DNA of 16,897 nt from Myxococcales bacterium (GTDB lineage: Bacteria > Myxococcota_A > UBA9042). Numbering within the stretch: the stretch's first letter is position 1; each line of letters begins with the position of its first letter. Below the pieces are notes generated by a model. That model had not been told where the DNA came from. It saw only the letters and a program-made list of their open reading frames with translations, and searched no databases. Positions 933-16,897 of the stretch are shown one piece after another. The translations under genes were made by a program, and so were the position numbers. The stretch is from the NCBI GenBank assembly GCA_037441385.1, contig JBBISH010000129.1, forward strand, positions 1-16,897, read 5' to 3'.

Positions 933-968
933 TATGCACCCCACCTGATTCACGCCTGTACGGTCTTC

Positions 969-995: not shown

Positions 996-997
996 CA

Positions 998-1075: not shown

Positions 1076-1100
1076 CCCGCCCGCGACTGGAGCATCGCGC

Positions 1101-2141: not shown

Positions 2142-2288
2142 CGGCGCCCTTTTTCGTTCTGCGCCAGCGTGCGGCGCCCCTACACTATGCCGCCTGCCGG
2201 CCCAAGCCTCAAGAAGCCCAGCGGAGGTGACGCTAATTACGCAAAAGGACACAGCTACTCCGAGCCGCGGCCGGTCTTGGGACCAGCA

Positions 2289-2316
2289 TTGCCACTCGGG
2301 CGAGCGGTGGTATGCT
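2289..2316 (+). promoter_or_regulatory. Sigma70-like promoter TTGCCA-N16-TATGCT with extended -10 (TGg) for the 2334/2903 gene pair
   Basis: -35 at 2289-2294, TG at 2308-2309, -10 at 2311-2316, then GGAGG RBS at 2323-2327 before ATG 2334. Confidence 0.5.
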
Positions 2317-2333
2317 GAAGTGGGAGGTCAGCC

Positions 2334-2906
2334 ATGCGTGCGACGGACCGACGGCGATTTTTCAGGGTTCTCTTGGCCCTGGGCGGTTTGCAGTGCGCGC
2401 TCGCCGGTTCCGGTGGCGCGGCAGCTTGGGCGGCGGGGGCACCAGCGGGCGGCGTCACGGGCCGGTTCGCCGCGCCCCAGGGCTGGTCGGTCGCAATACC
2501 ATCTGGAATGTTTGGATATTGGCGGCCGTTGGCCGGGCCGGTCGCCAGTGGCCAACTGGCCGCGAGCTTGGTGGTGGCCCAAGACGGCGCCGAGGTCGTG
2601 CGGCTGGACTTGTACGCTGCGGCAGATGCCCGAACCCCGCGCCAATGGGCCGAAAACGACGCTGCACCGTGGCTGGCCGGGGGCCGCGGCAGCGCGGTGG
2701 CGGCGACGCGCCAGCGACTCCCGGCGTGGCAGGTTGACCTGGACAAAACTTCGCAGCGCTTTGCGCAACGGCATGTCCTGGTGAGATTGGGCAATCAGAT
2801 GGCGCACTTGGTTTGCCAAGTCGGCGCGGGGAATGCCGTCGCCGTAGCTTGTGCGGCCATGGCCGACGACCTGCAACCGCCCGCCGGCAAGGCGAGGCAG
2901 CCATGA
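2334..2906 (+). CDS. Exported hypothetical protein (190 aa), possible Tat signal, possibly PsbP/DcrB-like fold
   Basis: Strong GGAGG RBS. DRRRFF is followed by a hydrophobic stretch and an AxA site. FAAPQGW motif. The stop overlaps the next start (ATGA, 2903-2906). Confidence 0.65.
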   Translation: MRATDRRRFFRVLLALGGLQCALAGSGGAAAWAAGAPAGGVTGRFAAPQGWSVAIPSGMFGYWRPLAGPVASGQLAASLVVAQDGAEVVRLDLYAAADARTPRQWAENDAAPWLAGGRGSAVAATRQRLPAWQVDLDKTSQRFAQRHVLVRLGNQMAHLVCQVGAGNAVAVACAAMADDLQPPAGKARQP

Positions 2907-5656
2907 GCGCGCGCCGGCGGATCGCCTTGGCGTTGTGCGCCGCGGCGTGGCTGTTGGCCGCTGCGCCGGCCTGGGCTGTGTACCAGTGCGGCAACGTCAA
3001 AGACGACTGCCAGTGCGGCTCGAACAACCCGTATCCATGCTGCGACAACGGCAGCAATTGCACGTGGTGGGCCTGGGAAGCCGCGTGCTGCCACTGGGGC
3101 GTAGGGCTGCCCGGCTGGGGCAACGCCAATACCTGGGCCAGTTACGCCAGCAAAAACGGTAACTACCAAGTCCTCGCCAACCCGGTGCCCGGCTCGATCG
3201 CCACCAGCACCAAGGGCGGCTATGGCCATGTCGCCTGGGTCGAGTCGGTCAACGGCAACAAGATCACCGTTAGCGAGATGAATTGCTGCGGTTCGTGCCC
3301 CTACGGCAAGCGCATCTGGAACTACGACAAGAGCTACTTCAACTCGGGCTTTGTGGTCAAAAAAGGCCTGCCGCCGCCTGGACCCGTGTGCCCCAACGGC
3401 CAGTGCGAAGGCGGCGAGAACTGCGCGACCTGCCCCCAGGACTGCGGAGGGTGCTGCGGCAACGGCGCCTGCGACAACGGCGAGAACTGTTCGAGCTGCC
3501 CCAAGGACTGCGGCGGCTGCTGCGGCAACGGCGCCTGCGATTTTGGCGAGAACTGCAGCACCTGCAGCAAGGACTGCGTGTGCTTGCCGCAAGGCGCGCT
3601 GGAAAAGGCCACTTGTACGCAGATTTCGGGGTGGGCCAAAGACCCCGACACCGCCGCGCCGGTGCCCGTTACGCTGATGGACGCGGGCAAGTCGCTGGCT
3701 TCGGGCAAGGCCGACCTGCCGCACCCCAGCCACGACGGCTACGGCTTCTGGTGGGTCACGCCCAAGTCACTGAAAGACAACACGGTTCACTCGGTCAGCG
3801 TTCAGGCGGCCGACGATGCGCACCCGCAGCTGGCGACGCTGGGGCCCTCGGAATTCATCTGCAACAACGGCCCGTTGCCCAGCGACGCCTGGCAGACCGA
3901 GCAGCAGGACCACGCGGGCTGCGGCGTGCAGGTGCCCGACGCCGATGGCTGGGTGGTGCGCCACGAGCATCAGGCCGGTTTCAAGCTGCCGCTGGCTGGC
4001 GTGTTGAGCTCGTGCCTGACGCCCCTGCCGGGCGGTTTTGTAGAAGGTTTTGCCGAACTGAGCTGGAGTTTTGGCGCCATGCCCTTTGCCGCGGCGATGC
4101 GCCTGGACGGGGCGCACCTTGGCAACTGGACCGGGCAAGGTCAGACGCGCGTGGAGTTTGGGCCGGGGAACACGCTGTGCCTGGACACGTTGACCCTGCA
4201 AGAAGTGCCCGTCGGGGTTGCCACCGAGTCGCAGCTGGGACCCGTGTGGGTGCGGCAAGGGCCGTGGTGGTGGGTGGCGACCAGCCACGAGCGCGGTTGG
4301 CGGGGCGCGGCTATCCCGCCCGATGGCTTGGAATTTACTGCAGATTCCGAGGTTGCTGGCGGTCTGCGCGCGACCCTGGGCGTGGGGCAGCCCTATGACC
4401 AGCTGACTTGGGACGTAAACGAGCTGAAGCTGCCGCAGGGCGGCACGGTGCACCTGCGCACGGGCACCTACGAGATGGCCGTCGTGGAACGTGGTCTTTA
4501 CGATTTCAAGGGGTTGTGGGGTCAAGAGCTGGCCGTGCAGGTGGCCGTGCCGGTGCCAACCGCCGCTGGCTCAGATGTACAGGTGCGGCTGAGCCACGTG
4601 CGCGTTCGGCAGAATGTAGAGCGCAAGCAAGGACCTTGGACCATCACCCAAGTGGGGAGCTATGGCCTGTACGCCGACGCTTCGCCCACCGCCACGCTGC
4701 CTGGTCTGGACTTGGCACTGCTGCACCGCGACGCGGCGTGGTGGACGACCGGTCAACTGCGGGCGACCGCGCATGTCACCCACGACCAGATCGACGCGTT
4801 CAAGGCGCGCCTGGCGGGCAACCTGGCCGAGCCGGGCTTGGAAGTTCGCCTGGAGGCGGCTGGCGTTGCGGTGTGGCAGCTGGCCGGGGGCAGCCCAGTG
4901 CCGCCGATCTTGGAGGTCAACTTGCCGCGGCCGGCCACCGACGGCACGCTGGTCTGGACCATCCAGGCGCTGCAGGACCGCTGGCACGGCCAAGACGGGA
5001 TGGTGCGGCTGTACGGACTGGAGTGGCGATCGCGCGGCTGGTGGACAGTGCCCAGCTTTGACGTGCAGGGCTGGCGCGATCGGCGGTTGCCGGGCGGCGG
5101 CGCACGCATCGACGCGGGAGCGCTGGTCCTGGCGGGGCAACTGGCGGTGCGGGCACCGCTGCCGTTCGAGGCCAAGGGGGTGCGGATGCACTACGCCCAA
5201 GACCTGCGGCCCATCGAGGCAGAGGCCGAAATCCGCTTTGGCGGCAAGCTGGTCCACACCGTCCACGCCGTGGGCCCCTACGAGCGCGACCTGGACCTGC
5301 CGGGGCCGGCGACTGAAGTCACTCTGCAGGTGGTGACCAACGGCGACTTGGTGGGTCTGGCCGACGCGACCACGCCCACCGACGCCGAAAGCCCGCGCTG
5401 GGTCGAGGTGAGCAACGTGGAAGTGCAGGCGCCCGATGGCCAATGGCTCAAGCTGGAGCACCTGGAAGGCTGGTCAGCCAAGGCGCTGGGGGCCGACGCG
5501 AGCGGGACGGCGGCCCCCAGCAACAACCACTCGGGCGCCCGGGACGAGGGCTGCTCGAGCGCGCCCACCGGCTCGGCCGGGACCCTTTTTGCTGCGTTGG
5601 CGGGCGTTTGGACGGCGGTGGTGTTGCGGCGGCGTGACAATCGCCGTTGCATCTGA
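2903..5656 (+). CDS. Surface-anchored CHAP-domain (cysteine/histidine amidohydrolase/peptidase) protein, 917 aa, with Cys-rich repeats and a MYXO-CTERM-like tail
   Basis: Signal peptide ending AWA. CHAP motifs NCTWWAW, WGNANTW, YGHVAWVESVNG and ITVSEMN. Three CGNGxC repeats and a GWAKDPD module follow. The C-terminus is GCSSA, a hydrophobic helix and RRR. Confidence 0.85.
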   Translation: MSARRRIALALCAAAWLLAAAPAWAVYQCGNVKDDCQCGSNNPYPCCDNGSNCTWWAWEAACCHWGVGLPGWGNANTWASYASKNGNYQVLANPVPGSIATSTKGGYGHVAWVESVNGNKITVSEMNCCGSCPYGKRIWNYDKSYFNSGFVVKKGLPPPGPVCPNGQCEGGENCATCPQDCGGCCGNGACDNGENCSSCPKDCGGCCGNGACDFGENCSTCSKDCVCLPQGALEKATCTQISGWAKDPDTAAPVPVTLMDAGKSLASGKADLPHPSHDGYGFWWVTPKSLKDNTVHSVSVQAADDAHPQLATLGPSEFICNNGPLPSDAWQTEQQDHAGCGVQVPDADGWVVRHEHQAGFKLPLAGVLSSCLTPLPGGFVEGFAELSWSFGAMPFAAAMRLDGAHLGNWTGQGQTRVEFGPGNTLCLDTLTLQEVPVGVATESQLGPVWVRQGPWWWVATSHERGWRGAAIPPDGLEFTADSEVAGGLRATLGVGQPYDQLTWDVNELKLPQGGTVHLRTGTYEMAVVERGLYDFKGLWGQELAVQVAVPVPTAAGSDVQVRLSHVRVRQNVERKQGPWTITQVGSYGLYADASPTATLPGLDLALLHRDAAWWTTGQLRATAHVTHDQIDAFKARLAGNLAEPGLEVRLEAAGVAVWQLAGGSPVPPILEVNLPRPATDGTLVWTIQALQDRWHGQDGMVRLYGLEWRSRGWWTVPSFDVQGWRDRRLPGGGARIDAGALVLAGQLAVRAPLPFEAKGVRMHYAQDLRPIEAEAEIRFGGKLVHTVHAVGPYERDLDLPGPATEVTLQVVTNGDLVGLADATTPTDAESPRWVEVSNVEVQAPDGQWLKLEHLEGWSAKALGADASGTAAPSNNHSGARDEGCSSAPTGSAGTLFAALAGVWTAVVLRRRDNRRCI
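3389..3577 (+). repeat. Three 22-aa (66-nt) Cys-rich repeats C[PG]NGxCxxGENCxxCxxDC(GGC)
   Basis: Units start at 3389, 3455 and 3521. Confidence 0.9.
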
Positions 5657-5675
5657 AAATGAAAATCATTATCAT
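5647..5675 (+). promoter_or_regulatory. Sigma70 promoter TTGCAT-N17-TATCAT overlapped by a Fur box (5655-5673)
   Basis: GAAAATGAAAATCATTATC matches the Fur consensus GATAATGATAATCATTATC at 17/19. It is an AT-rich island covering the spacer and -10, about 40 nt upstream of the barrel gene. Confidence 0.8.
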
Positions 5676-5713
5676 CTTGGCCGTCGCCCGCTCCGGGTGC
5701 TCGGCGAGTTGTG

Positions 5714-6517
5714 ATGAAGCCCCTGTCTCTGTTGACGAAAGTTGCGCTGGCCGCCATCGGTGTGGGGCTGCCGCAGGCCGCCTGGGCCATCGACCGCCAC
5801 GAGGTGCAGGTCTACGAAGATGACCTGAACGACCCCGGCCAATTCGCCTTTGAGCTGCACAGCAACTACGCCATCGGCGGCCGCAAGACGCCCGAGTACC
5901 CGGGGGAATTGGCGCCCCGCGGCGTGGCGCGCTTTACGCTGGAGCCGGCCTACGGTCTGAGCGAAAACGTGGAGCTGGGGGCCTACCTGCAGATGGCCGT
6001 GGGGCCTGACGCCCAGGCGCGCTGGGCCGGCGCCAAGGTGCGGGTCAAGCTGCGTGCGCCGCAAAAGCGCTGGAATCTTCCGGTATTTCTTGGGCTGAAC
6101 ATCGAGATCGGCGCTGTGCCCAAGGCCGTGGAGCAAGAAGGCTGGGCCAACGAGTTCCGGCCGTACGTGGGCTGGCGCAATCAGTGGTTGTTGTTGGCGT
6201 TCAACCCGATTTTCGGCTACGCCTTGTCGGGCAAGGACGCCTTCAAACCGGACCTTGAGCCGGCCGGCAAGGTCAGCGTGGACACCCAGCACGGCGTGGC
6301 GGTGGGCGTGGAGTACTACGCGGGCATTGGGCCGATTGGCTCGACTTTGCTGCCGATCGCGCAGCAAGAACACTTGCTGATGGGCGTGCTGGACCTGGCG
6401 GTGCCCGAGGGCTCGGCGCTGTCGGCTTGGGAAGTCAACGTGGCGGTGGGCAAATCGCTGACGCAGGCCCTGGGCGAGGACTGGCTGGTCAAGACCATCA
6501 TCGGCCGGTCGTTCTAG
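5714..6517 (+). CDS. Putative small outer-membrane beta-barrel protein, probably iron/metal-regulated
   Basis: Signal peptide ending AWA, alternating hydrophobic beta-strand pattern, C-terminal Phe (KTIIGRSF) typical of BAM substrates, N-terminal HEVQVY/ELHSNY. Start is GTG 5711 or ATG 5714. Confidence 0.7.
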   Translation: MKPLSLLTKVALAAIGVGLPQAAWAIDRHEVQVYEDDLNDPGQFAFELHSNYAIGGRKTPEYPGELAPRGVARFTLEPAYGLSENVELGAYLQMAVGPDAQARWAGAKVRVKLRAPQKRWNLPVFLGLNIEIGAVPKAVEQEGWANEFRPYVGWRNQWLLLAFNPIFGYALSGKDAFKPDLEPAGKVSVDTQHGVAVGVEYYAGIGPIGSTLLPIAQQEHLLMGVLDLAVPEGSALSAWEVNVAVGKSLTQALGEDWLVKTIIGRSF

Positions 6518-6520
6518 CCA

Positions 6521-7855
6521 CTACGGCTGTGTCGCCGCCGGCCACGAGTAGAGCTGAGGCAGCATCGCGGTATAGCTGATAATCGGTGTGGAACCGTCGG
6601 CGCCGCCGTTGGGGCCGATGATGAACACCTTGTCTTTGGGCAGGCCCGCGGCGTAGTAGGCGCCGATGTCGGTGGTGGCGTTGCCAAAGCCGGCGTTCCA
6701 CTTGACCTTCACCGTCGTCTCTAGCTCGTTCAACAAGTCGCCCTTGAACTTCTGCACGCCTTGGACCGTGGGCATGGTCTGCGCCACATCTTCGGTCAGG
6801 AACAGCGGCCCCAGCGGAAAATCGTGCTCGGCCAACCACGTGCGCGAGTAGCGGTTGACGATCTGCGGCCGGCCCGTGATGTAGACGATGCGGTAGTCCT
6901 TCTTGCCGAATTGTTGCATGGCGGTGTTGGCGTCGGGGTACATGGCGGCCGAGGCGCCGAAGATGACGTCTTGGAACAGCTCCCAGTCGCTGGTGGTCAG
7001 CGTGCCGTCGATGTCGGTGACGATGGCTTGCATGCCGGCGGGCCACGCGGCGATCACGCCATCGGCCACGGTCTGGTCGCCCAAAAGCACCATCTTGACG
7101 CGGTAGTCGCCCGCCGGCAGCGAGGCGGGCACGTCGAAGTAGACGATGCCATTGCTGTCGGTGGACAGGGCGCCCCACTTGACCCAACCGGGGCAGGTCT
7201 GGACCCACAATTCCACGGTCTCGTCGCCCAGATCGCTGTCCAGGGTGCCGTAGGTGAAGTGGCCGCGCAGCTTGCCGGTACCGCCCAGGGGCAGGATCAG
7301 GTCGCGAATCCGGTGGTTCGGGCCGCCCTGGATGGTGACCAGCGGCGAAGCGATGCTGTGCTTCCAATCTTGCTTGGCGGGCAGGGCAAACGGGGCGTCG
7401 CAGTGACCGCCCGTGACCGTGGACGGCGGCGGCGGGCCAGTATCGTTGCCCGCATCTGCAGTTGCGTCACCTGCGCCGGAGTCGCTGGCGGCTGCGTCTG
7501 CTGCAGCGCTGTCGGCCCCACCCGCGTCACCGATGCTTGCGTCTGATGCAGCCGTGTCTGGCGCCGATGTATCCGGTGCGGCAGTATCTTGGGCGACCGT
7601 GTCCTGGGGCGCGCTGTCTTGCGCCGCGACGTCGGCGGGTTCGATGTCGGCGGCAGCAAGGTCTTGCGGTGCTTCGGCATCGGCCGACTCGGCTCCGTCT
7701 GGCGATCCGTCGGCCGTGGTCGCGCCGTCGCCGCCGCCGTCCAGGCCGCCTGCGCCGTCGGTATAGCCGGCGTCGGCCTTTTGCTGCGACTTGCTGTCGA
7801 GCGGTGGATCGCCACACGCCACCAAAAGAAGGACTGCCAGCCAAACCATGCGCAT
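6521..7855 (-). CDS. Lipoprotein (444 aa) with acidic linker and LNS2/PITP-type HAD phosphatase domain
   Basis: ATG 7855 with GAGGG upstream gives MRMVWLAVLLLVAC (lipobox). HAD motifs IVTDIDGTLT, YITGRP, FK and GFGNATTDIGAY. Confidence 0.85.
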   Translation of the reverse strand: MRMVWLAVLLLVACGDPPLDSKSQQKADAGYTDGAGGLDGGGDGATTADGSPDGAESADAEAPQDLAAADIEPADVAAQDSAPQDTVAQDTAAPDTSAPDTAASDASIGDAGGADSAAADAAASDSGAGDATADAGNDTGPPPPSTVTGGHCDAPFALPAKQDWKHSIASPLVTIQGGPNHRIRDLILPLGGTGKLRGHFTYGTLDSDLGDETVELWVQTCPGWVKWGALSTDSNGIVYFDVPASLPAGDYRVKMVLLGDQTVADGVIAAWPAGMQAIVTDIDGTLTTSDWELFQDVIFGASAAMYPDANTAMQQFGKKDYRIVYITGRPQIVNRYSRTWLAEHDFPLGPLFLTEDVAQTMPTVQGVQKFKGDLLNELETTVKVKWNAGFGNATTDIGAYYAAGLPKDKVFIIGPNGGADGSTPIISYTAMLPQLYSWPAATQP

Positions 7856-8015
7856 CGGGCCCTCGCGAAGGCGCGCGATTGGCCCGCGCACCGGAGCGCA
7901 GCATACTCGGCCGGGTGGCAGCGAATCCAGTGCGATTCGTCTGGCTCCCAGAGAGCACGGCCAAGACGACAGGATGGGCCAGAACATGCGGCACCATGCC
8001 GCCAAGGAAGGCGCG

Positions 8016-8381
8016 ATGGGGTGGTTGAGCAAGCTGCTGGGGGGCACGCCGGCGCCGATGCCGGTGCGGCTGGACGACAGCAACTTTCAACAAGAAGTGC
8101 TGCGCAGCGACGTGCCGGTGCTGGTGGATTTCTGGAGCGCGACCTGTGCGCCGTGTCGGCAGCTGGAGAGCGTGATCCTGAACCTGGCGAAAGAGTACGA
8201 CGGCAAGGTCAAGATCTGCGAGGCCAACGTGGAGACGGCGGCCAAGGTGTGCAACCAGCTGGGCATTCGGTCGACGCCGACGGTGGTGTACTTTCGCCGC
8301 GGCGCCGAAGTGGAGCGGGTCATCGGCTTTCGCGGCTCGCTGTACCATCGCGACCTCATCGAGAACGAGCTGCTGAAGTAA
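8016..8381 (+). CDS. Thioredoxin-family protein (121 aa), active site CAPC
   Basis: AAGGAAGG RBS. Motifs NFQQEVLRSDVPVLVDFWSATCAPC and GIRSTPT (cis-Pro loop). Confidence 0.9.
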   Translation: MGWLSKLLGGTPAPMPVRLDDSNFQQEVLRSDVPVLVDFWSATCAPCRQLESVILNLAKEYDGKVKICEANVETAAKVCNQLGIRSTPTVVYFRRGAEVERVIGFRGSLYHRDLIENELLK

Positions 8382-8509
8382 CTGGCGCGAATTGACCTGC
8401 GGTGGCGATTGTCACCAGTGCGTCTTGGCGGCGAACCCCAGCGCAGAACCATCGGCTCCCATTGGACGAGCCCCACCGCAAGCCGGTGCGGCACCAGTGG
8501 AGCAAGGCG

Positions 8510-10708
8510 ATGGCGATGCAACGACGCGAATTCATCAAGATAACCGGGATGACGGCCCTGGGCGTGGCGGCGGCCAGCTCGGTGGTGCTGCCCAAGGCCA
8601 GCCAAGCCGCGGTGGACCCGGGCACCGACGGCGACCACACCGTGGCGACCTTCTGCGAACTGTGCTTTTGGAAGTGTGGCGTGCTGGCGCACGTCAAAGA
8701 CGGCAAAGTCACCAAGATTGTGGGCAACCCCGACCACCCGCTGTCGCGCGGGGCGCTGTGTCCGCGCGGCACCGGCGGCACCGGGCTGCTGTACGACCCC
8801 GACCGCCTGAAGAAGCCGATGATCCGCGTGGGCGAGCGCGGTCAGCAGAAGTTCAAGGAAGTGGAGTGGGGCGAGGCCCTCGATTTTGTCGCGGCCAAGC
8901 TGAAGGACATTGCGGCCAAGCACGGCCCTGAGTCGGTGGCGATGTTTGCCCACGGCTTTGGCGGCTCGTTCTTCAAGCACCTGCTGAATGCCTACGGTTC
9001 CGACAACGTGGGCGCGCCGTCGTATGCGCAGTGCCGCGGCGCCCGCGAGGTGGGCTTCCAGCTGACCTTTGGCTCGGCGCTGGGTTCGCCCGAGGTCATC
9101 GACCTGGAGAATTCGCGGGCGATCGCGCTCATCGGCTCGCACCTGGGCGAAAACATGCACAACACCCAGGTGCAGGAGTTTGCCAAGGCCATCGAGCGCG
9201 GCGCGCAGTTGATCGTGGTGGATCCGCGCTTCTCGACGGCGGCGGGCAAGGCGCGGCACTGGCTGCCGATCAGGCCGGGCACGGACCTGGCGCTGTTGCT
9301 GGCGTGGATCCACGTGATGCTGAATGAGGGCTTGTACGACCGCGACTACGTCGAGAAGTACGCCGTGGGCCTGGAGCAGCTGAAGGCGCACGTGGCCGAC
9401 AAGACGCCGGAGTGGGCGTCGCTGGAGACGGGCCTGGAGGCGGCGCAGATTGTCGACTCGATTCGGGTTCTGGCGGGCGCGCGGCCGGCGGCGCTGCTGC
9501 ACCCGGGCCGCCACACCGCCTGGTACGGCGACGACGCGCAGCGGGCGCGGGCGATGGCGATCGTCAATGCGCTGCTGGGCAGCTATGGCCGGCGCGGCGG
9601 CATCTACTACCCCACCAAGCTGGGCGTGCCGAAGTATCCGGGCATCCCCGACTACGGCCACAAGTTCAAGCCGGCGCCGGATCGGCCCAAAGGCAAGGCG
9701 TTTCCGTTTGCCGACGAGTCGCTGGCCCACGGTCTGCGCGATGCGAGCATCCCGGGCACGGCCGAGTACGACATCAAGGCGTGGCTGGTCTACGGCACCA
9801 ACCTGATGCAGGCGCTGCCGGAGCCCAAGAAAACCATCGAGGCCATCCAGCATTTGGACCTGCTCGTGGCCATCGACGTGCTGCCGGCCGAGATCGTGGG
9901 CTACGCCGACGTGGTTCTGCCCGAGGCGACCTACCTGGAGCGCTGGGACGACGTGGTGGTGACGCCGTACAAGGAGCAGTACATCGCGGTGCGCCAGGCG
10001 GCGGTGAAGCCCCTGTACGACAGCAAGCCGGGCTGGTGGATTGCCAAAGAGCTGGCCAACCGCATGGGCCTGGCGGCCTTCTTCCCGTGGAACGACGCGG
10101 CCGAGATGGTCAAAGCCCGGTTGACCGCAGGGAAATTCGACGTAGAGTCGGTGCTGAAAAAGGGCGTGGCGCTGGGTGCGCGCAAGCCGGTGTTCATCGA
10201 AGACGGCGCCCCGGCGGTGTTTGCCACGCCCAGCAAGAAGATCGAGCTGTTCAGTCAGCAGTTGGCCGACGCCGGCCTGGATCCGCTGCCCAAGTACACG
10301 CCGCCCGAAGAGCCAGGGCCGGGCCAGTTCCGCCTGCTGATGGGCCGCACGCCGACCCACACCTTTGGGCGAACCACCAACAACCGTTTCTTGTCCGAGA
10401 TCTACAGCGAGAACGAGCTGTGGCTGAACGCGCAGGTGGCACGCGAGCTGGGGCTGGAGAACGGCGCGCAAGTGCGGGTGGTGAATCAGGACGGCGTCAA
10501 GTCCACGGCGCTGCGCCTCAAGGCGACCCAGCGCATCCGCCACGACTGCGTGTTCATGGTCCACGGCTACGGCCACAGCGCGGCGGGGCTCAACTTCGCC
10601 AAGGGGCGCGGCGCCGACGACGCAGCGCTGGTGACCCGCACCAAGGTGGACCCGCTGTTTGGCGGCACGGGCATGAGCGTCAATTTCGTCGCCGTCGAAC
10701 GCGTGTAG
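8510..10708 (+). CDS. psrA: Polysulfide/thiosulfate reductase-type molybdopterin catalytic subunit (PsrA/PhsA family), Tat-exported
   Basis: Tat motif QRREFIK. FS0 motif CELCFWKC...LCPRG. Putative Mo-ligating Cys in SYAQCRG (9032-9034). VVDPRFS and ADVVLPEATYLER motifs, plus a C-terminal Molydop-binding domain. Start is ATG 8510 or 8516. Confidence 0.88.
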   Translation: MAMQRREFIKITGMTALGVAAASSVVLPKASQAAVDPGTDGDHTVATFCELCFWKCGVLAHVKDGKVTKIVGNPDHPLSRGALCPRGTGGTGLLYDPDRLKKPMIRVGERGQQKFKEVEWGEALDFVAAKLKDIAAKHGPESVAMFAHGFGGSFFKHLLNAYGSDNVGAPSYAQCRGAREVGFQLTFGSALGSPEVIDLENSRAIALIGSHLGENMHNTQVQEFAKAIERGAQLIVVDPRFSTAAGKARHWLPIRPGTDLALLLAWIHVMLNEGLYDRDYVEKYAVGLEQLKAHVADKTPEWASLETGLEAAQIVDSIRVLAGARPAALLHPGRHTAWYGDDAQRARAMAIVNALLGSYGRRGGIYYPTKLGVPKYPGIPDYGHKFKPAPDRPKGKAFPFADESLAHGLRDASIPGTAEYDIKAWLVYGTNLMQALPEPKKTIEAIQHLDLLVAIDVLPAEIVGYADVVLPEATYLERWDDVVVTPYKEQYIAVRQAAVKPLYDSKPGWWIAKELANRMGLAAFFPWNDAAEMVKARLTAGKFDVESVLKKGVALGARKPVFIEDGAPAVFATPSKKIELFSQQLADAGLDPLPKYTPPEEPGPGQFRLLMGRTPTHTFGRTTNNRFLSEIYSENELWLNAQVARELGLENGAQVRVVNQDGVKSTALRLKATQRIRHDCVFMVHGYGHSAAGLNFAKGRGADDAALVTRTKVDPLFGGTGMSVNFVAVERV

Positions 10709-10717
10709 GGGGGCAAC

Positions 10718-11263
10718 GTGAACCGCGAGAAACGCTATGTGATGGTGGTCGACACCCGCTTGTGCGTGGGCTGCAAAGCCTGCGTGCTGGCGTGCAAGGC
10801 CGAGAACAACACCCCCGACGGCTACTGCCGCGACTGGATCGTCGAGGACATCTGGGGGCTCTTCCCCAACCTGCGCGCCGAGATCCGCTCGGAGCGCTGC
10901 AACCACTGCAGCAACGCGCCGTGCGTGGACGCCTGCCCGACCGGCGCCAGCCACAAGGTCGACGGCGGCATCGTGCTGGTGGACCACGACCTGTGCACCG
11001 GCTGCAAGGCCTGCATCGCCAGCTGCCCCTACGACGCCCGCTACGTGCACCCCGACGGCTACGTGGACAAGTGCACCTTCTGCGCGCACCGCGTCGCCGA
11101 CGGCAAGACCACCGCGTGTGTGGCGATCTGCCCGACCAAGACGCTGCACTTTGGCGACGCCAACGACCCGCAGAGCGAAGTGGCGCAGCTCTTGGCTAGC
11201 CGCCGCCACAAGGTGCTGCACCCCGAGACGGGCTGCGAGCCCAACCTGTATTTCCTGACGTAA
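10718..11263 (+). CDS. psrB: 4x[4Fe-4S] electron-transfer subunit (PsrB/NrfC/DmsB family)
   Basis: CVGCKACVLAC, CNHCSNAPCVDACP, CTGCKACIASCP and KCTFC...CVAICP. Confidence 0.92.
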   Translation: MNREKRYVMVVDTRLCVGCKACVLACKAENNTPDGYCRDWIVEDIWGLFPNLRAEIRSERCNHCSNAPCVDACPTGASHKVDGGIVLVDHDLCTGCKACIASCPYDARYVHPDGYVDKCTFCAHRVADGKTTACVAICPTKTLHFGDANDPQSEVAQLLASRRHKVLHPETGCEPNLYFLT

Positions 11264-11275
11264 TGAGAGGTTGCG

Positions 11276-12229
11276 ATGCTTCCGACCCTGCTCGAACACA
11301 CCACCACCCGCATCAACGCTGAGATCGACCCGGCGCTGCACATCTGGGGGTGGGAGATTGCCGTGTACTTGTTCTTGGGCGGCCTGGTGGCCGGCCTGCT
11401 GATCCTGTCGTCGCTGCTGCTGTGGAAGCCGCGCGAGCAGACCCCCAGCCGGATCCTGCAGTTTGCGCCCCTGCTGGCCCTGGTGCTCCTGAGCCTGGGC
11501 ATGGGCGCGCTGTTCTTGGACCTGGCCTACAAGCTGCACGTGTTCCGCTTCTACACCGCGTTTCGGCCCACGTCGCCGATGTCGTGGGGCGCGTGGATCC
11601 TGGTGCTGATCTACCCGGTGGCGGCGCTCAGCGGGCTGCTGGCGCTGGGGCCTGACGCGCGGGCGTGGCTGTTGAAGAAGCTGCCCTTGGCCAAGGTGCT
11701 GGCTTGGGCCGAGCGCAAGCGACAGGCGCTGCTGGGGGCAACCCTGGCGGGCGGCGTGGGCCTGGGCATCTACACCGGCCTGCTGCTGGGCACGCTGACG
11801 GCGCGGATTCAGTGGAATACCGCGGTGTTGGGGCCCCTGTTCCTGACTTCGGGGCTGTCGTCGGGCGCGGCGTTTCTGTTGCTGTTCAAGCTGGACGAGG
11901 TGGACCGCCACCGCCTGGTGCGCTGGGACATGCTGGCGCTGGTGGTGGAGGCGGTGCTGATCGCCGCGATGCTCCTGGGGTTTGCCAATGCCGGCGCGGC
12001 CGGGCAGCTGGCGGCCGACGCGCTGCTGGGCGGGGCCTGGACGGCCAGCTTCTGGTCGCTGGTGGTGGTGATGGGCATCGCGGTGCCGCTGCTGCTGGAA
12101 GGGATTGAAATCAAGAAGCATCTGCCGCTGGTGGCCGTCACGCCCACGCTGGTGCTGCTGGGCGGTTTGGCGCTGCGGGCGGTGCTGCTGGCGGCGGGCC
12201 AAGACAGCGGCTTCCGGATGCTGCCGTAG
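11276..12229 (+). CDS. psrC: NrfD/PsrC-family membrane anchor, quinol-interacting subunit
   Basis: WGWEIAVYLFLGGL, LFLDL and TSPMSWGAWIL motifs, about 8 hydrophobic segments, GAGAGG RBS. Confidence 0.9.
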   Translation: MLPTLLEHTTTRINAEIDPALHIWGWEIAVYLFLGGLVAGLLILSSLLLWKPREQTPSRILQFAPLLALVLLSLGMGALFLDLAYKLHVFRFYTAFRPTSPMSWGAWILVLIYPVAALSGLLALGPDARAWLLKKLPLAKVLAWAERKRQALLGATLAGGVGLGIYTGLLLGTLTARIQWNTAVLGPLFLTSGLSSGAAFLLLFKLDEVDRHRLVRWDMLALVVEAVLIAAMLLGFANAGAAGQLAADALLGGAWTASFWSLVVVMGIAVPLLLEGIEIKKHLPLVAVTPTLVLLGGLALRAVLLAAGQDSGFRMLP

Positions 12230-12250
12230 TTGAACGAGTTGGAGGGTGAG

Positions 12251-12778
12251 ATGGAGAACAAGACAACGAACGAAGCGCCGTTCTGGAATCCGTACTTGGC
12301 CGGCATCGTGCTGGGCCTGGTGCTGCTGGGCAGCTTTGTAGTGATGGGCAACGGCCTGGGCGGCTCGGGCGCGGCCAACCGGGTGGCGATTGGCGCGGCC
12401 CACATCGTCGCCCCGCACGCCATCGAACAGAACGCCTACATGGGCCCGATGGTCGCACCCGGACAGCACATTTTGGACGATTGGCTGGTCTGGGAAGTGC
12501 TGGGCGTATTCCTGGGCGGCGCGCTGGCGGCGTATTCCGCCGGACGCATGAAGTTGGTGCTGCTGCGCGGGCCGCGGGCAACGGTGGCGTCGCGGCTGGC
12601 GATGGCGATCTTGGGCGGCCTGGTGATGGGCGTGGCGGCCCGGCTGGCGCGAGGTTGCACGTCGGGTCAGGCGCTGACCGGCGGTGCGGCGCTGGCGGCA
12701 GGGTCGTGGGTGTTCATGTTCGCGGTGTTTGGCGGCGGCTACGCGGTCGCGCCCCTGCTGCGGAGGTACTGGAAATGA
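12251..12778 (+). CDS. YeeE/YedE-family sulfur-compound transporter half (175 aa)
   Basis: GGAGG RBS before ATG 12251. Motifs FWNPYLAG, GNGLGGSG and ARLARGCTSGQAL. Confidence 0.88.
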   Translation: MENKTTNEAPFWNPYLAGIVLGLVLLGSFVVMGNGLGGSGAANRVAIGAAHIVAPHAIEQNAYMGPMVAPGQHILDDWLVWEVLGVFLGGALAAYSAGRMKLVLLRGPRATVASRLAMAILGGLVMGVAARLARGCTSGQALTGGAALAAGSWVFMFAVFGGGYAVAPLLRRYWK

Positions 12779-13959
12779 TGCTGCCTCTTTATCCCAATGA
12801 ACTCTTTGGTCGCGCCACCGGCATGGTGGTGGGGACGCTGACGGGCATCGCCTTTGGCTTTGTGCTCGAGCGTTCGGGCTTTGGCCGTGCGCCGATGCTG
12901 GCCGCGCAGTTCTACGGCACCAACATGCGTGTGTTCAAGGTCATGTTCTCGGCCATCGCCACGGCGGCGGCGGGACTGGCCGTGCTGGCGGGGCTGGGCA
13001 TGCTGGATTTGGGCCAGCTCACCTTCCCCGAGACCTACTGGTGGCCGCAGCTCGCCGGCGGCCTGCTGCTGGGCGTGGGCTTCATCGTGGCCGGCTACTG
13101 CCCGGGTACCGCGTGCGTGGCGGCGGCCTCGGGCGACGTGGGCGGCATGCTTACCTACCTGGGCGTGATGGTCGGCTCGCTGGTGTTTGGCTTTGCGTAT
13201 CCGGCCTTTGCGGACCTGTACGTGGCCGGCAAGGCGGGCGTGCTGCGTCTGGACACGCTGCTGGGCCTGCCCTACGGGGTAGTGGCGGCGGCGGTGGTGG
13301 CGATGGCGGTCGGCTGCTTCTTTGGCGCCGAGGCGCTGGAACGCTACTTTGCCAAGCGCGCTCACCAAGACGCCCCTGATACCGTGGCGCGGCCGCGCAA
13401 CCGCAGCTTTGTCGCGCTGGCGGTGCTGGCGCTGGCGGCGGTGGCGACGATGGCGATCCCGCAGCCGGTGCAATCGGCGGTGGTGCGCACGCCGAGCGCG
13501 ATCAAGGTGCTGCCGGTGGTCGATGCGGCGCTGCGCACGCCCGAGGCGGTGTGGCTGGTCGACGTGCGCGACGCCAAGCTGTGCAAAGAGAAGACCTTGC
13601 CGCGGGCGGTGTGCTTGGCAGACCTGCCCAAGGGTGCGGCCGCGGCGGCGCCAAGCTACAAGCGCCTGGTGCTGGTCGGTGCCGACACCGTCAAGGAAGT
13701 GCCGGCCGCGCTTGCGGAGTTCCCCGGAGAGGTCGCCAGCCTGCAGGGTGGCTACCCGGCGTTTGCTGCCGAGCTGCTGGCGGACTTGCCGGCCGAAGCG
13801 ACCCAGACGATGACGCCGGCACGGCTCGCCGAATACCGCTTGCGTGGAGCCCTGCACGCCCGCTTGACGGGTGCAGCGGCGCCAGTGGCGGCGCCGGCCC
13901 CGGTGGTCGCGCCGGTTGCCCCGTCCGGTGCCCCGGCCAAGAAGGGTGGTGGCTGCTAA
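12775..13959 (+). CDS. YeeE/YedE-family transporter half fused to a degenerate rhodanese-like domain and a Pro/Ala tail ending GGGC (394 aa)
   Basis: ATGA overlap with the previous gene. Motifs GIAFGFVLERSGF and GYCPGT. The C-terminal WLVDVRD...TLPRAV...SLQGGYPAF matches rhodanese signatures. Stop TAA. Confidence 0.85.
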   Translation: MMLPLYPNELFGRATGMVVGTLTGIAFGFVLERSGFGRAPMLAAQFYGTNMRVFKVMFSAIATAAAGLAVLAGLGMLDLGQLTFPETYWWPQLAGGLLLGVGFIVAGYCPGTACVAAASGDVGGMLTYLGVMVGSLVFGFAYPAFADLYVAGKAGVLRLDTLLGLPYGVVAAAVVAMAVGCFFGAEALERYFAKRAHQDAPDTVARPRNRSFVALAVLALAAVATMAIPQPVQSAVVRTPSAIKVLPVVDAALRTPEAVWLVDVRDAKLCKEKTLPRAVCLADLPKGAAAAAPSYKRLVLVGADTVKEVPAALAEFPGEVASLQGGYPAFAAELLADLPAEATQTMTPARLAEYRLRGALHARLTGAAAPVAAPAPVVAPVAPSGAPAKKGGGC

Positions 13960-14032
13960 GGGTGTCAGGTATTGCCACTTGCCACATAGCTTCCCCCTGC
14001 CGCTCGGGCAGCCGCTCTGGTAGGCTCGCGGG

Positions 14033-15793
14033 GTGCGCCGACTCCTTCCCGCCGTTGCTGTAGCCTGTGGCACGCTCGCCTTGCTTGGCGCCGCGTGGTG
14101 GGGCAGCCGGCGACCGTCGGTCCCGCCGCCCCCTGACCAATGCCTGCCTTGCCATCTGCGCGAAAACCCTGGGGGTGTCCACGACGCCCTGGCCATGGGC
14201 TGCGCCACTTGCCATCTGGGCGACCGCAATGCCACCGAGAAGGTCGCGGCGCACCGCGGCATGACTCGCGACGCCGGCGATTTGGCTGTGGCCGGGCAGA
14301 CTTGCGGCAAGTCCGGCTGCCATCCCGGCGAACACGCGCGGGTTGCAGACTCGCTGATGGCCACGGCACGCGGCCTGGTCGCTGTGGATCGCTGGGCCTG
14401 GGGCCTGGCCGAGCAGCCAACGGGCACGACCACCATCCGTGAAGTGCTTGCAGCGCATGGACAAAGTGACGCAGATCGCCACCTGGCCAAGCTCTGCGCG
14501 GGCTGCCACCTGAGGGCGCCGCGGGCCAACCGCGACGACGCCTTGCAGGGACAGGGCGTGGGTTGCGCGGCCTGCCACACACCGGTGCGCACCGAAAAGG
14601 TGCAACCGGGGCACCCCAGCCTGGACAGCCGGCCCGACGACCGCCGCTGCCTGGGCTGCCACAGCCGCAGCAGCCGGATCAGTTTGACGTATCAAGGCCT
14701 TTACGAGCCGGCGGAGTGGGCCAAGTGCCCGGAGCCAGTGTCGCTGCCCGACGGGCGCACCGTCTGCCAGGCCGAGGCCGACGTGCACCTAGCTGCGGGG
14801 ATGGCCTGCATCGATTGCCACGGCTACAGCGACCTGATGGGGCGCAATGTCGGAGAATTGAGGGAGTTTCAGGCGGTAGAGGTCCGCTGCGAGTCGTGCC
14901 ACGGCCCGGTGCCGCGGGCCGAGCAGGGCCAGTGGCCGGCGGTGCTCCCCGAACCGCTTCGCCATCTGGCGGCTCTGCGCGCGCATCCACGCCAACCCGG
15001 CGAGCCCGCGCGTCTGGGCAAGAAGGGTGGACTGCTGTGGAACGTGGTGCCGGCTGGGCCTGGTAACCCCGCTCAGCTGCTCCGTAAAGCCGGCGGCGCG
15101 CCCTGGACGATCAAGCCGACACCGCTGAACGCGGACCATCGCCGGCCCGGCCACGAGCGTTTGAGCTGTCAGGCCTGCCACAGCGCGGTGGCGCCGACCT
15201 GTCCCACTTGCCACACCAGCCAGAACCCCGCAGGCCAACAGTGGGATTTTGCCGCCGGCGAAGTCACGGCTGGGCAGTTCGTGGAGCACGGCCCTTCGCA
15301 GGGGCTGCAACCGCCGGCACTGGGCGTGGCGCCCGATGGCCGCATTCTGCCGGCGATTCCCGGGATGCTGGCCCAGCTGCAGGGGGCGGACGGCGCGACG
15401 CGGGCACTGCACTTGTTCTCGACGCTGGACCCGCACGCCACCCGCAAGGCCGCGCGGACCTGCAGCGACTGCCACCGCCAGCCGCGCGCGATGGGCCTGG
15501 GCCAAGGTCAGCTGGACGTGGACCGGCAACCGCCCCAATTTGCGCCGCTGGTTCCGCAGCCAGGGGCCCCGGAGCGCGCTGCCGATGGTTGGACGGGGTT
15601 GGCCGACGCGCAGCCGGGTCAGAGCTCGCAGCCGGGGGCGCGGTCGCTCCATGCCAAGGAACTGCAGGCGATAGTCGAGGTTGGGCGCTGCCTGGGCTGC
15701 CACGACGCACGCGAAGAGCTGATCTTTGGGGATTTTGCCAAGGCCCGCGAGCGGGTGCAGCAGCCGGGAACTCGCTGCCGCGGCGCAAAGTAG
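14033..15793 (+). CDS. Multiheme cytochrome c (11 CxxCH + 1 CX4CH) with N-terminal signal/anchor
   Basis: CLPCH, CATCH, CGKSGCH, CAGCH, CAACH, CLGCH, CIDCH, CESCH, CQACH, CPTCH, CSDCH, CLGCH. Hydrophobic N-terminus. GTG start with no clear RBS. Confidence 0.9.
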   Translation: MRRLLPAVAVACGTLALLGAAWWGSRRPSVPPPPDQCLPCHLRENPGGVHDALAMGCATCHLGDRNATEKVAAHRGMTRDAGDLAVAGQTCGKSGCHPGEHARVADSLMATARGLVAVDRWAWGLAEQPTGTTTIREVLAAHGQSDADRHLAKLCAGCHLRAPRANRDDALQGQGVGCAACHTPVRTEKVQPGHPSLDSRPDDRRCLGCHSRSSRISLTYQGLYEPAEWAKCPEPVSLPDGRTVCQAEADVHLAAGMACIDCHGYSDLMGRNVGELREFQAVEVRCESCHGPVPRAEQGQWPAVLPEPLRHLAALRAHPRQPGEPARLGKKGGLLWNVVPAGPGNPAQLLRKAGGAPWTIKPTPLNADHRRPGHERLSCQACHSAVAPTCPTCHTSQNPAGQQWDFAAGEVTAGQFVEHGPSQGLQPPALGVAPDGRILPAIPGMLAQLQGADGATRALHLFSTLDPHATRKAARTCSDCHRQPRAMGLGQGQLDVDRQPPQFAPLVPQPGAPERAADGWTGLADAQPGQSSQPGARSLHAKELQAIVEVGRCLGCHDAREELIFGDFAKARERVQQPGTRCRGAK

Positions 15794-15799
15794 GCCCTT

Positions 15800-16348
15800 C
15801 TACTTCTTGTAGATTTCGCCGCGGCGCAGCTGACGGTACATGTCCAGCGACTCGCGCAGGATGTTCAGCGCGTCGGCCGGGCCCAAGAAGTTTTCCACGA
15901 CGACTTGCTTGTTTTCCAGGACCTTGTAGTCCTCGAAGAACCGCTTGATTTGCCGCAAGGTGTGGCCGGGCAGCTGGTCGTGATCGGTATAGTCGACGAA
16001 GGCTGGGTCGTGGACGCTGACGGCGATGATCTTGTCGTCGATGCCCTTGTCGTCGCGCATCCGCATGACGCCGATGGCGCGCGCCATCACGATGGTCATG
16101 GGGTACACGGGCTCTTGGCTGAGGACCAGCACGTCCAGGGCGTCGCCGTCGTCGCAGTAGGTGCGCGGGATGAAGCCGTAGTTGGAGGGGTAGTAGACCG
16201 CGCTGTGCAGCAGGCGATCCAAGCGCAAGAAGCCGGTCTCCTTGTCGATCTCGTACTTGTTCGAGCTGCCTTTGGGGACTTCGATGACCACGGGGAAGGC
16301 GGTTTCGATGACGGTTTCGTCGATGTAGATGTCGTGCCAGGCGTGCAT
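15800..16348 (-). CDS. ppa: Family I soluble inorganic pyrophosphatase
   Basis: VIEVPKGSSNKYEIDK, LDRLL, YPSNYGFIPRT, DGDALDVLV, DDKIIAV and FFEDYKVLE. Confidence 0.96.
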   Translation of the reverse strand: MHAWHDIYIDETVIETAFPVVIEVPKGSSNKYEIDKETGFLRLDRLLHSAVYYPSNYGFIPRTYCDDGDALDVLVLSQEPVYPMTIVMARAIGVMRMRDDKGIDDKIIAVSVHDPAFVDYTDHDQLPGHTLRQIKRFFEDYKVLENKQVVVENFLGPADALNILRESLDMYRQLRRGEIYKK

Positions 16349-16499
16349 GGGGTTGCTTCTGGCGCGCCGGGGATTGGCGCGGCGGGCGCACGATACAAGC
16401 CACCGCGGGGGGGTGCAAGTTGCCTGGGCGACGCATTGAGTTGGGCTCGGTGGGATTGCCGAAGTGAGTTCTGGGGTTCTGCGCGCCGTGCGCGCCGGT

Positions 16500-16691
16500 C
16501 TACTTGTCGCATCGGTTATTCAAGACCGCGCCGAGCACGGCCGCCACCAGCAGCGCCACCAACGCGCCGGCCATGAAGCCGCTGGGGATGGCGGCCAGCC
16601 ACGACCAGCCGTGGTGGCGGGCCAGGTGCCAGACCAGGGCGGGGCTGGCGATCCAGAAGGTGAGGTTGGCGGCAAGGTCGCTTGGGCGCAT
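16500..16691 (-). CDS. Small putative membrane protein (about 63 aa; alternative start 16721)
   Basis: MRPSDLAANLTFWIASPALVWHLARHHGWSWLAAIPSGFMAGALVALLVAAVLGAVLNNRCDK has two hydrophobic segments and GC-rich third codon positions. Confidence 0.5.
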   Translation of the reverse strand: MRPSDLAANLTFWIASPALVWHLARHHGWSWLAAIPSGFMAGALVALLVAAVLGAVLNNRCDK

Positions 16692-16806
16692 GGGGTAGGG
16701 TAGATCAGGGCGGGCTCCCATTGCCACTTGGCCATTTCGCTTGCACGGGCCCGCGCCGCCCTGGCAAACTGCCGATGGCCCAAGTGCGGCCACGCCCCAG
16801 GTGCCC

Positions 16807-16897
16807 ATGCCCGCCCCCAAACCCGTACATGCTCCCTACACCTACACCGATTACCTGGCCTGGGACGACGGCCAGCGCTGGGAAATCATCGACGGCG
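16807..16897 (+). CDS. Uma2/DUF820-family putative endonuclease, 3'-truncated
   Basis: Own translation: MPAPKPVHAPYTYTDYLAWDDGQRWEIIDG. The YTYxDYLxW...RxEIIDG N-terminus is characteristic of Uma2 proteins. AGGTG lies upstream. Absent from the ORF track because it is truncated. Confidence 0.8.
   Translation, partial: MPAPKPVHAPYTYTDYLAWDDGQRWEIIDG

Follow-up and report, generated by a model that had tools for sequence, protein, structure and literature searches.

What is the purpose of a rhodanese-fold domain that lacks its catalytic cysteine, is joined to half of a YeeE-type membrane channel, and ends in a flexible tail whose last residue is a cysteine? The question is raised by a gene of a Myxococcales bacterium (assembly GCA_037441385.1, contig JBBISH010000129.1, positions 1 to 16,897). 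This whole stretch of 16,897 nucleotides, with a G+C content of 67.7%, is called the window here; all coordinates are positions in it, and the genes of the module under discussion all lie on the + strand. The gene in question, yeeE2-rhodanese-arm, follows the genes of a Psr-type molybdoenzyme and of a second half channel, yeeE1. Its product of 394 amino acids (P0001), referred to as the arm protein, is made up of a YeeE/DUF395 half-channel, an extra membrane helix, a rhodanese fold, an Ala/Pro linker, and a terminal KKGGGC. The tail cysteine is conserved throughout the close homologues, and the catalytic cysteine of the rhodanese is absent from all of them. On balance, and with modest confidence, the arm protein is probably a carrier with a swinging arm, tethered to the membrane, by which sulfane sulfur would pass from PsrA to the split channel or back. 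The gene and the parts of its product are as follows.

12775..13959 (+): yeeE2-rhodanese-arm gene, 394 amino acids (translation, Pfam, homologues, AlphaFold2 model)
12811..13359 (+): membrane part, residues 13-195, corresponding to YeeE helices H1-H7, the N-terminal half plus the topology-reversing helix (PF04143, E 2.7e-17)
13099..13101 (+): Cys109 in the motif CPGT, channel cysteine matching StYeeE Cys91 (Cys in 120/121 sequences)
13387..13458 (+): basic, predicted cytoplasmic loop ending in RPRNR, then an extra transmembrane helix, residues 205-228 (model helix 205-227; bias in Lys and Arg)
13486..13782 (+): rhodanese-fold domain without catalytic cysteine, residues 238-336 (superposition on GlpE and Sud)
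13582..13614 (+): Cys270 and Cys280, a probable structural disulfide (all-or-none pattern in 121 sequences)
13666..13686 (+): degenerate active-site stretch LVLVGAD, residues 298-304, with Gly302 at the position of the catalytic Cys (family alignment)
13813..13872 (+): helix conserved beyond the rhodanese domain, residues 347-366, with a near-invariant TG at its end (model helix 348-365)
13873..13938 (+): Ala/Pro/Val-rich flexible linker (alignment; low model confidence over residues 377-394)
13939..13956 (+): terminal KKGGGC with Cys394 as the last residue (G392, G393 and C394 invariant; stop codon 13957-13959)

Rhodanese fold and cysteine-tipped tail

Close homologues were collected by a word-index search, which returned 314 proteins at E ≤ 1e-3; the best 120 of these (383-399 amino acids, 44-81% identity) were aligned with the window protein (n = 121). 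A profile search over 1.84 billion representatives gave 4173 matches at E ≤ 1e-3, of which 150 were listed, 123 of them with a rhodanese part. The 471 representatives at E ≤ 1e-30 are an upper bound for the family, as they include other YeeE-type relatives. Relationships among the distant representatives were derived from a FastTree tree only. Finally, the species-representative genomes of 185,579 species contain at least 563 stretches encoding relatives, and all counts of genome loci rest on the best 80 of these, every one from a metagenome-assembled genome.

The match of the window protein to the Pfam rhodanese family PF00581 is weak (E 0.17; 12.8 bits, cut-off 22.2), and a precomputed match to the same family is present in many homologues. 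The identity of the domain is nevertheless solid, because the structural model, its superposition on a known rhodanese, the fold search, and the family profile all agree. The AlphaFold2 model of the arm protein has a mean predicted local distance difference test (pLDDT) value of 82, with means of 88-96 for blocks of ten residues over residues 241-340. Residues 238-336 superpose on Escherichia coli GlpE (1gn0_A; VIA-align) at Z 12.4 with a root-mean-square deviation (rmsd) of 2.6 Å and 97/108 residues aligned, and dozens more rhodaneses superpose at Z 8-11.5. The Foldseek matches listed are all rhodanese domains or chains containing one (best E 4.5e-3, none at or below 0.001). With the profile of the arm-protein family, rhodaneses of solved structure are detected at the sequence level (1yt8_A, E 6.1e-11), whereas a phmmer search of the PDB with the single arm protein gave no match. 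The ESM Atlas yielded only sub-threshold leads, namely rhodanese clusters of 180-210 amino acids with scores of 0.86-0.87.

The original prediction had described a rhodanese-like domain with the loop LVLVGAD and no cysteine in it, which the fold match and the family alignment bear out. Position 302 is occupied by Gly in 57 sequences, Ala in 45, Ser in 8, Asp in 6, Thr in 4, and Glu in 1, and by Cys in 0/121. Among the 150 listed distant representatives, a loop of the Cys-x4-Arg type occurs in only two, P0207 and P0161, which combine a canonical rhodanese loop (CRTQRR and CPKGRR, respectively) with the terminal tail. This combination is consistent with an ancestral relay from loop to tail, and the two proteins may be living intermediates in the transfer of the reactive cysteine from one to the other. 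The dead rhodanese domain itself is probably a module for docking or a scaffold.

Beyond the domain, translation of 12775-13959 (+) gives the flexible arm with a terminal GGGC that had been predicted: the protein ends in GAAAPVAAPAPVVAPVAPSGAPAKKGGGC followed directly by the stop codon (13870-13959; ...APAKKGGGC-stop). The arm starts after the conserved helix, whose last residue, G366, is near-invariant in the full-protein alignment (A1) and has an invariant counterpart in the alignment of the rhodanese-arm part (A2). From this glycine to the cysteine there are 25-28 residues in 117/121 sequences (range 25-32), and the linker between them consists of 33% Ala, 22% Pro, and 11% Val. From residue 377 on the chain is modelled as disordered, with pLDDT below 50 for residues 377-394. 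Conservation of the tail exceeds chance, since the mean share of the commonest residue is 0.96 in the last six columns and 0.45 in the 22 linker columns preceding them, across 121 sequences that retain 44-81% identity. The back-translated KKGGGC-stop motif occurs once in the 6.63-Mb genome.

Whether a basic tail with GGC is kept among YeeE homologues linked to psr was one of the checks set by the original prediction, and the tail proves to be conserved. The prediction withstood this and every other refuting check open to sequence analysis, and its interpretation is partly supported. The terminal cysteine is present in 121/121 aligned sequences; 119 of the 120 close homologues end in GGC and the remaining one in GGGCS. 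In 87/121 the tail cysteine is the sole Cys beyond residue 232. Where the reading frame can be followed to its stop in the genome loci, the cysteine is the last residue or precedes one or two others in 77/78 (the exception is L070). Among the 123 distant representatives with a rhodanese part, 114 have a Cys among their last four residues, with the endings GGC (42), GGCG (25), EGC (13), GGCS (7), GGCGG (5), and rarer forms. The nine without it comprise three scattered singletons and one clade of six (P0245, P0248, P0256, P0271, P0269, and P0240; 100% local support) of 368-680 amino acids, which have the channel motif GWCPGT and the rhodanese part and offer a natural control that lacks the tail.

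The split channel and the side of the membrane

The membrane part of the arm protein matches the YeeE family PF04143 with residues 33-229 on profile positions 1-197 (63.7 bits, cut-off 27). Its AlphaFold2 model superposes with residues 13-214 on residues 1-197 of StYeeE (8j4c_B; rmsd 3.6 Å, 174 aligned) at Z 8.8, a value that, taken alone, is middling for a helical bundle. The complementary portion of the profile, positions 176-309 of 310, is matched by the preceding gene product YeeE1 (73.1 bits, cut-off 27), whose family profile aligns to StYeeE 239-329 (E 7.1e-7). The single-chain model of YeeE1 is poor (pLDDT 67, predicted template-modelling score 0.38), and a fold search with it returned generic helical matches (best Z 5.4). 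Judged by these alignments, YeeE1 corresponds to the C-terminal half of a full-length YeeE.

Each half carries one conserved cysteine. In the arm protein this is Cys109, which is equated with StYeeE Cys91 from the structural superposition and a weak profile match to residues 5-113 of 6leo_A (E 0.11). Cys143 of YeeE1, in the motif RGCTSGQ, is invariant in 76/76 sequences, and its pairing with StYeeE Cys293 comes from counting residues along the profile alignment of the YeeE1 family to StYeeE. Cys293 faces the periplasm at the periplasmic indentation and contacts thiosulfate (PMC7449682). The arm protein sequence has no counterpart of StYeeE Cys22, as is also described for PmpAB (PMC11582611). 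All NCBIfam equivalogs stay under their cut-offs (NF041049, 24.3 vs 645; NF033796, 22.5 vs 350; TIGR04112, 18.2 vs 200), and the locus does not contain the nine-helix form of TsuA/YeeE or YedE in a single polypeptide, the channel being split over two genes. In sequence terms, YeeE1 and the arm protein make up a PmpAB-like split channel with one conserved cysteine per half.

The position of the rhodanese domain and the tail follows from the topology of this channel. The N-terminus of StYeeE is outside and the C-terminus inside, and the two halves have opposite topologies owing to H7 (PMC7449682). A chain that runs through StYeeE-like helices H1-H7 and then through one further helix would therefore return to the periplasm. 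The basic RPRNR followed by the last transmembrane helix, on which the original prediction had relied, was found at residues 206-210 (13390-13404) and 211-228 (13405-13458). Across the family the distribution of Lys and Arg obeys the positive-inside rule: residues 190-210 contain a mean of 4.88 of them, the N-terminus 0.10, and the loop 74-88 0.12. Further, Cys270 and Cys280 occur together in 34 sequences, are both missing from 87, and are never found singly (n = 121); they probably form a structural disulfide, which would suit the periplasm. From the YeeE topology with its extra helix, the charge bias, and the cysteine pair, we infer that the rhodanese domain and the tail lie in the periplasm. 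The predicted periplasmic C-terminus thereby gains the support of three independent lines, all of them indirect.

The psr neighbourhood and the proposed carrier

The genes that accompany the arm gene are the following.

8510..10708 (+): psrA-like molybdopterin catalytic subunit with a signal for twin-arginine translocation (Tat), MAMQRREFIK (Pfam Molybdopterin, Molybdop_Fe4S4, Molydop_binding)
10718..11263 (+): psrB-like four-cluster ferredoxin subunit (Pfam Fer4_11, E 6.5e-24)
11276..12229 (+): psrC, NrfD-type membrane quinol subunit (Pfam NrfD, E 3.2e-41)
12230..12778 (+): yeeE1, half-size YeeE/DUF395, 182 amino acids as listed, with an uncertain true start (PF04143, E 3.7e-20)
12656..12658 (+): Cys143 of yeeE1, counterpart of StYeeE Cys293
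14033..15793 (+): multihaem c-type cytochrome, ExtM-like, with 11 CxxCH and 1 CxxxxCH motifs (NCBIfam NF040943, E 2.3e-62)

The ATG of the arm gene overlaps the stop codon of yeeE1. The first three products together have the composition of the PsrABC, PhsABC, and SrrABC molybdoenzymes: a Tat-exported subunit of the PsrA lineage that binds bis(pyranopterin guanosine dinucleotide), a four-cluster ferredoxin, and an NrfD-type anchor. By its sequence, the window PsrA is a close relative of the Psr/Phs structure 2vpw_A from Thermus thermophilus, which was deposited as a thiosulfate reductase (E 1.7e-213, 714 bits). PsrA being Tat-exported and the arm probably periplasmic, enzyme and arm would share a compartment.

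The linkage of the arm gene to psrABC and yeeE1 is obligatory. The best 80 of the at least 563 loci come from uncultured Myxococcota, Acidobacteriota, Gemmatimonadota, Planctomycetota, Bdellovibrionota, and others. Among them, yeeE1 lies directly 5' of the arm gene in all 73 that leave room for it, and psrA, psrB, psrC, and yeeE1 share a strand and lie within 6.5 kb in 56/56 loci with enough upstream DNA, in several phyla. The order is ABC-E1-E2 in 49 of these and AB-E1-E2-C in 7. Other neighbours are facultative: a relative of the ExtM-like cytochrome in 28/80 loci (upstream or downstream, on either strand), a gene for a FadL/TodX-type outer-membrane channel directly downstream in 28/80, and a sigma-54 activator upstream in 24. 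A search for stand-alone short relatives of residues 235-394 gave a single match, which is a fragment of the arm-protein family, and a search for longer fused forms found none (weak evidence).

In the proposed mechanism, the arm protein would supply the N-terminal half of a YeeE-type channel split over two subunits, and the extra helix would bring the chain back to the periplasm. Past the rhodanese domain, a swinging arm of 25-28 Ala/Pro-rich residues would present a tip of Gly-Gly-Cys flanked by lysines. The terminal thiolate would bind sulfane sulfur, as a single atom or a chain, in a persulfide or polysulfide adduct, with selenium as an alternative cargo, and the loaded arm would travel between the active-site funnel of the PsrA-type enzyme and the opening of its own channel on the periplasmic side. 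There, a cysteine relay through the membrane would proceed by way of YeeE1 Cys143 and next Cys109 of the arm protein. Transfer could run either way, as a Sud-like delivery of substrate to PsrA, as capture of product with import, or as both. The cargo, the contact with PsrA, and the direction of transfer are proposals. The anatomy speaks for a tethered carrier, since a Gly-flanked thiol follows Lys or Arg on a flexible arm of fixed length beside a channel mouth, and so does the fact that a periplasmic chalcogen reductase is always encoded beside it. That the domain bearing the arm is fused covalently to a channel half argues that the two act together. The chemistry is plausible because printed precedents exist in SoxY, in the hand-over from SoxY to SoxT, and in the "fourth cysteine" of YeeD.

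Several observations weigh against this carrier. Position 305 is Asp in 87/121 sequences, which makes the rhodanese loop acidic rather than the cationic loop that stabilises a persulfide, and leaves the role of the domain unexplained. The psrA-like product scores 480 bits against the NCBIfam PhsA model, under the cut-off of 694, so its substrate class is not assignable from sequence. In the sister clade of six, the channel and the rhodanese domain can evidently work without the arm. TusA, DsrC, and SoxY (PF13501) were not found in the source genome, which is 90.9% complete (SoxZ was not searched for); neither a cytoplasmic acceptor for imported sulfur nor a cytoplasmic route of sulfur oxidation is therefore evident. 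Contact of the arm or its domain with PsrA is predicted from the gene neighbourhood. Lastly, the StYeeE periplasmic indentation is positively charged (PMC7449682), and a tip flanked by two lysines might be repelled at an indentation of this type.

The rival explanations differ in what the tail would carry, or in whether it carries anything. The same device could handle selenium, which we regard as unlikely: the enzyme would be an Srr-type selenite reductase, and the arm cysteine would trap newly formed Se(0) in an S-Se adduct, avert its precipitation at the Mo site, and pass the selenium to a YedE-like channel. SrrA falls within the PsrA/PhsA lineage (PMC7331816, PMC10100899), and the presence of rhodanese-like genes beside SrrA is described as a mark of selenite reducers (PMC8528874, citing Wells 2019); in the ambiguous wording of a review, srrF and possibly srrE encode a rhodanese-domain protein (PMC12481199). 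The best NCBIfam match of the adjacent cytochrome is ExtM, with a relative in 28/80 loci, and both half-channels weakly match the YedE/FdhT model (E 5.5e-5 and 2.3e-9), but the ExtM match reaches 211 bits against a cut-off of 800, the YedE matches are likewise far under theirs, and the cytochrome is missing from 52/80 loci, some of them short. SelD is encoded in the source genome (368.8 bits), yet it is common and hence unspecific. Quite unlikely, in our judgement, is an arm that serves the channel only, as a periplasmic "zeroth cysteine" or a lid at the mouth that captures or gates thiosulfate or sulfane sulfur and never enters PsrA, with PsrABC merely co-regulated and either providing or using up the transported species in solution. 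The fusion partner is indeed a channel half and not a Psr subunit, Cys143 of YeeE1 is invariant, YeeD offers a precedent (PMC11073785), and no fusion to a longer protein was found, which is weak evidence. Against this, a conserved arm of 25-28 residues on a folded spacer exceeds the reach needed for the protein's own mouth, and linkage to psrABC in 56/56 loci is tighter than co-regulation demands.

A terminal cysteine without cargo, forming an intermolecular disulfide (in a dimer or as a tether to Psr) or acting as a redox switch, is very improbable. A lone exposed cysteine readily forms disulfides in the oxidising periplasm, and the tail cysteine is the only one of the periplasmic part in 87/121 sequences; still, a structural disulfide needs neither an invariant Gly-Gly nor flanking Lys or Arg, nor a place within 0-3 residues of the C-terminus, nor a long floppy linker. 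The convergence of some members on the GGCGG of SoxY points instead to insertion into an active site (PMC6067878). It is extremely improbable that the terminal GGC signals processing or attachment, with the cysteine removed to yield a Gly-Gly thiocarboxylate, or with a lipid or cofactor attached. There is a superficial likeness to Gly-Gly-ended sulfur carriers with Cys-extended precursors. The probable periplasmic site, however, offers no ATP for adenylation, the fold is that of a rhodanese and not a beta-grasp, and no E1-like or JAMM gene was found among the neighbour families present in at least six loci (eight representative reading frames scanned with Pfam). Moreover, the cysteine itself is invariant, and not Gly-Gly alone, and one to three trailing residues are tolerated. 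A ubiquitin-like precursor of a Gly-Gly thiocarboxylate was rejected. Also rejected were a C-terminal sorting signal, as no helix follows the motif, and a role of the tail cysteine as Mo ligand, as PsrA retains its own invariant cysteines.

The tethered sulfur carrier remains the preferred reading, and a bolder form of it can be drawn for the whole module. The five genes may encode a self-contained machine in which Cys394, Cys143 of YeeE1, and Cys109 of YeeE2 form a bucket brigade physically wired to the respiratory molybdoenzyme, so that single chalcogen atoms formed or used at the Mo site would cross the membrane without ever being free in the periplasm; the dead rhodanese would then be a docking adaptor that places the arm on PsrA. 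This extension is tentative and rather unlikely. If true, it would couple respiration to the import or export of sulfur, or supply the missing device for handling Se(0) in selenite respiration.

Other features of the window and its relatives stand apart from the conserved module. The cytochrome at 14033-15793 (+) has as its best family match the "selenite/tellurite reduction operon" cytochrome ExtM, far under the cut-off. It occupies the place that the FadL/TodX gene has in other loci, for example in L025 (9269-10519, +; PF03349, E 9.1e-24); one may speculate that hydrophobic substrates, for instance elemental sulfur, enter through the outer membrane by way of its product. A family of 360-residue reading frames downstream in 27 loci has no Pfam match, does not resemble the overlapping FadL-like gene, and was set aside as a shadow frame. 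A small thioredoxin (8016-8381, +; PF00085, E 1.4e-21; active site CAPC; no evident signal peptide) lies just 5' of psrA. Of the related loci, just the closest pair (L001 and L002) has a counterpart of it, which places it outside the conserved module. Further upstream, a protein of about 917 amino acids (2903-5656, +) has an N-terminal CHAP domain (PF05257, E 2.1e-15), then Cys-rich repeats of the form CGNGxCDxGENCxxCxxDC, then a long region with no Pfam match. A protein of 520 amino acids (6521-8083, -) combines a low-complexity region rich in Asp, Ala, and Gly with a C-terminal LNS2 phosphatase domain of the lipin/PITM type (PF24694, E 1.1e-24; PF08235, E 1.3e-16), families described mostly in eukaryotes. 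An ordinary inorganic pyrophosphatase (PF00719, E 1.7e-56) is encoded at 15800-16348 (-).

Comparison with known systems

A search of the open-access full text of PMC and bioRxiv found neither a cysteine-less rhodanese with a terminal cysteine arm nor a YeeE-rhodanese fusion beside psr (subscription journals and supplements lay outside the scope of this search). Should the carrier exist, it would provide a testable account of how insoluble or reactive species of sulfur or selenium reach Psr-type enzymes, and it would assign a purpose to the YeeE-type half channels that adjoin them. A cysteine-less rhodanese with a basic GGC end would then also be a sequence marker with which such operons can be annotated in metagenomes.

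A close counterpart in principle is SoxY, a subunit of the periplasmic SoxYZ carrier in thiosulfate oxidation. Its carboxy-terminal GGCGG is reported as the sulfur-binding sequence, whose cysteine binds the sulfur substrate (PMC6067878), and a hand-over from this cysteine to those of the YeeE-like SoxT has been called conceivable (PMC11582611). As in SoxY, a cysteine that is probably periplasmic is borne here on a flexible, Gly-flanked C-terminal peptide. The likeness, which the original prediction had drawn from the GGGC of the window alone, is closer than it stated, as distant members end in GGCG (25/123) or in the exact GGCGG (5/123); it is a likeness of motif and not of descent. The Pfam scan gave no SoxY match (PF13501) in the arm protein at E ≤ 1, and its rhodanese-fold scaffold has no relation to SoxY in sequence or fold. 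Unlike the soluble SoxY, the arm protein is membrane-anchored and fused to a channel, and it is linked to a Psr-type reductase and not to Sox enzymes. The arm of about 26 residues also contrasts with the short tail of SoxY.

Sud of Wolinella succinogenes is a periplasmic polysulfide-sulfur transferase that works with polysulfide reductase and carries sulfur on the cysteine of its rhodanese loop. The arm protein likewise places a rhodanese fold, in all probability periplasmic, beside a Psr-type reductase, and its model superposes on Sud (1qxn_B) at Z 8.0 (rmsd 3.3 Å, 97 aligned). In contrast to Sud, a soluble homodimer, it is integral to the membrane, its loop position is never Cys (0/121), and the only conserved cysteine on the side of the domain is at the tip of the tail. 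A related arrangement is that of SrrE and SrrF from the selenite reductase operon of Bacillus selenitireducens, described as rhodanese-domain accessories beside a reductase of the PsrA lineage (PMC12481199, PMC8528874).

Among the channels, YeeE (TsuA) takes up thiosulfate together with YeeD (TsuB), and natural YeeE-YeeD fusions occur. They have a linker of about 40 residues and a small domain whose single cysteine, called the "fourth cysteine", prolongs the channel relay at the cytoplasmic face of YeeE (PMC11073785). Here too, a YeeE-type channel part bears an appended domain with a putatively reactive cysteine. YeeD is TusA-like and cytoplasmic, whereas the domain of the arm protein has a rhodanese fold, follows an extra helix, and is most likely periplasmic; moreover, its cysteine is on the tail and not in the fold, and the channel is split in two genes. 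Scores against the NCBIfam TsuA models stay far under the cut-offs (24.3 vs 645). PmpA and PmpB are encoded by adjacent genes; each protein is half of a channel, spans the membrane with four helices, and has a single conserved cysteine, the equivalents of StYeeE Cys91 and Cys293, and a heterodimer has been proposed (PMC11582611). The window has the same two adjacent half-size genes, one like the N-terminal half and one like the C-terminal half, with Cys109 and Cys143 of YeeE1 as the cysteines. PmpAB subunits, however, have about 130 residues and neither H7 nor a soluble domain, while the N-half-like subunit of the window retains an H7-like helix and gains a further helix, the rhodanese domain, and the arm. 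In the window, moreover, the C-half-like gene comes first, the reverse of the PmpAB order.

The linker composition here (33% Ala, 22% Pro) resembles that of the Ala/Pro-rich swinging arms of lipoyl domains in the E2 component of 2-oxoacid dehydrogenases. The arm principle is shared with DsrC, whose C-terminus is a flexible arm that inserts into DsrAB and bears the substrate sulfur on its cysteines. Folds, compartments, and chemistry of both are unrelated to those of the arm protein, and the analogy is one of principle only. Cysteine-tipped swinging arms such as those of SoxY and DsrC are central to the microbial handling of reactive sulfur, and to our knowledge all that have been described are soluble and come from oxidative or dissimilatory pathways. 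The arm protein would put this principle on another type of scaffold, in which a dead rhodanese is fused to a YeeE-type half channel.

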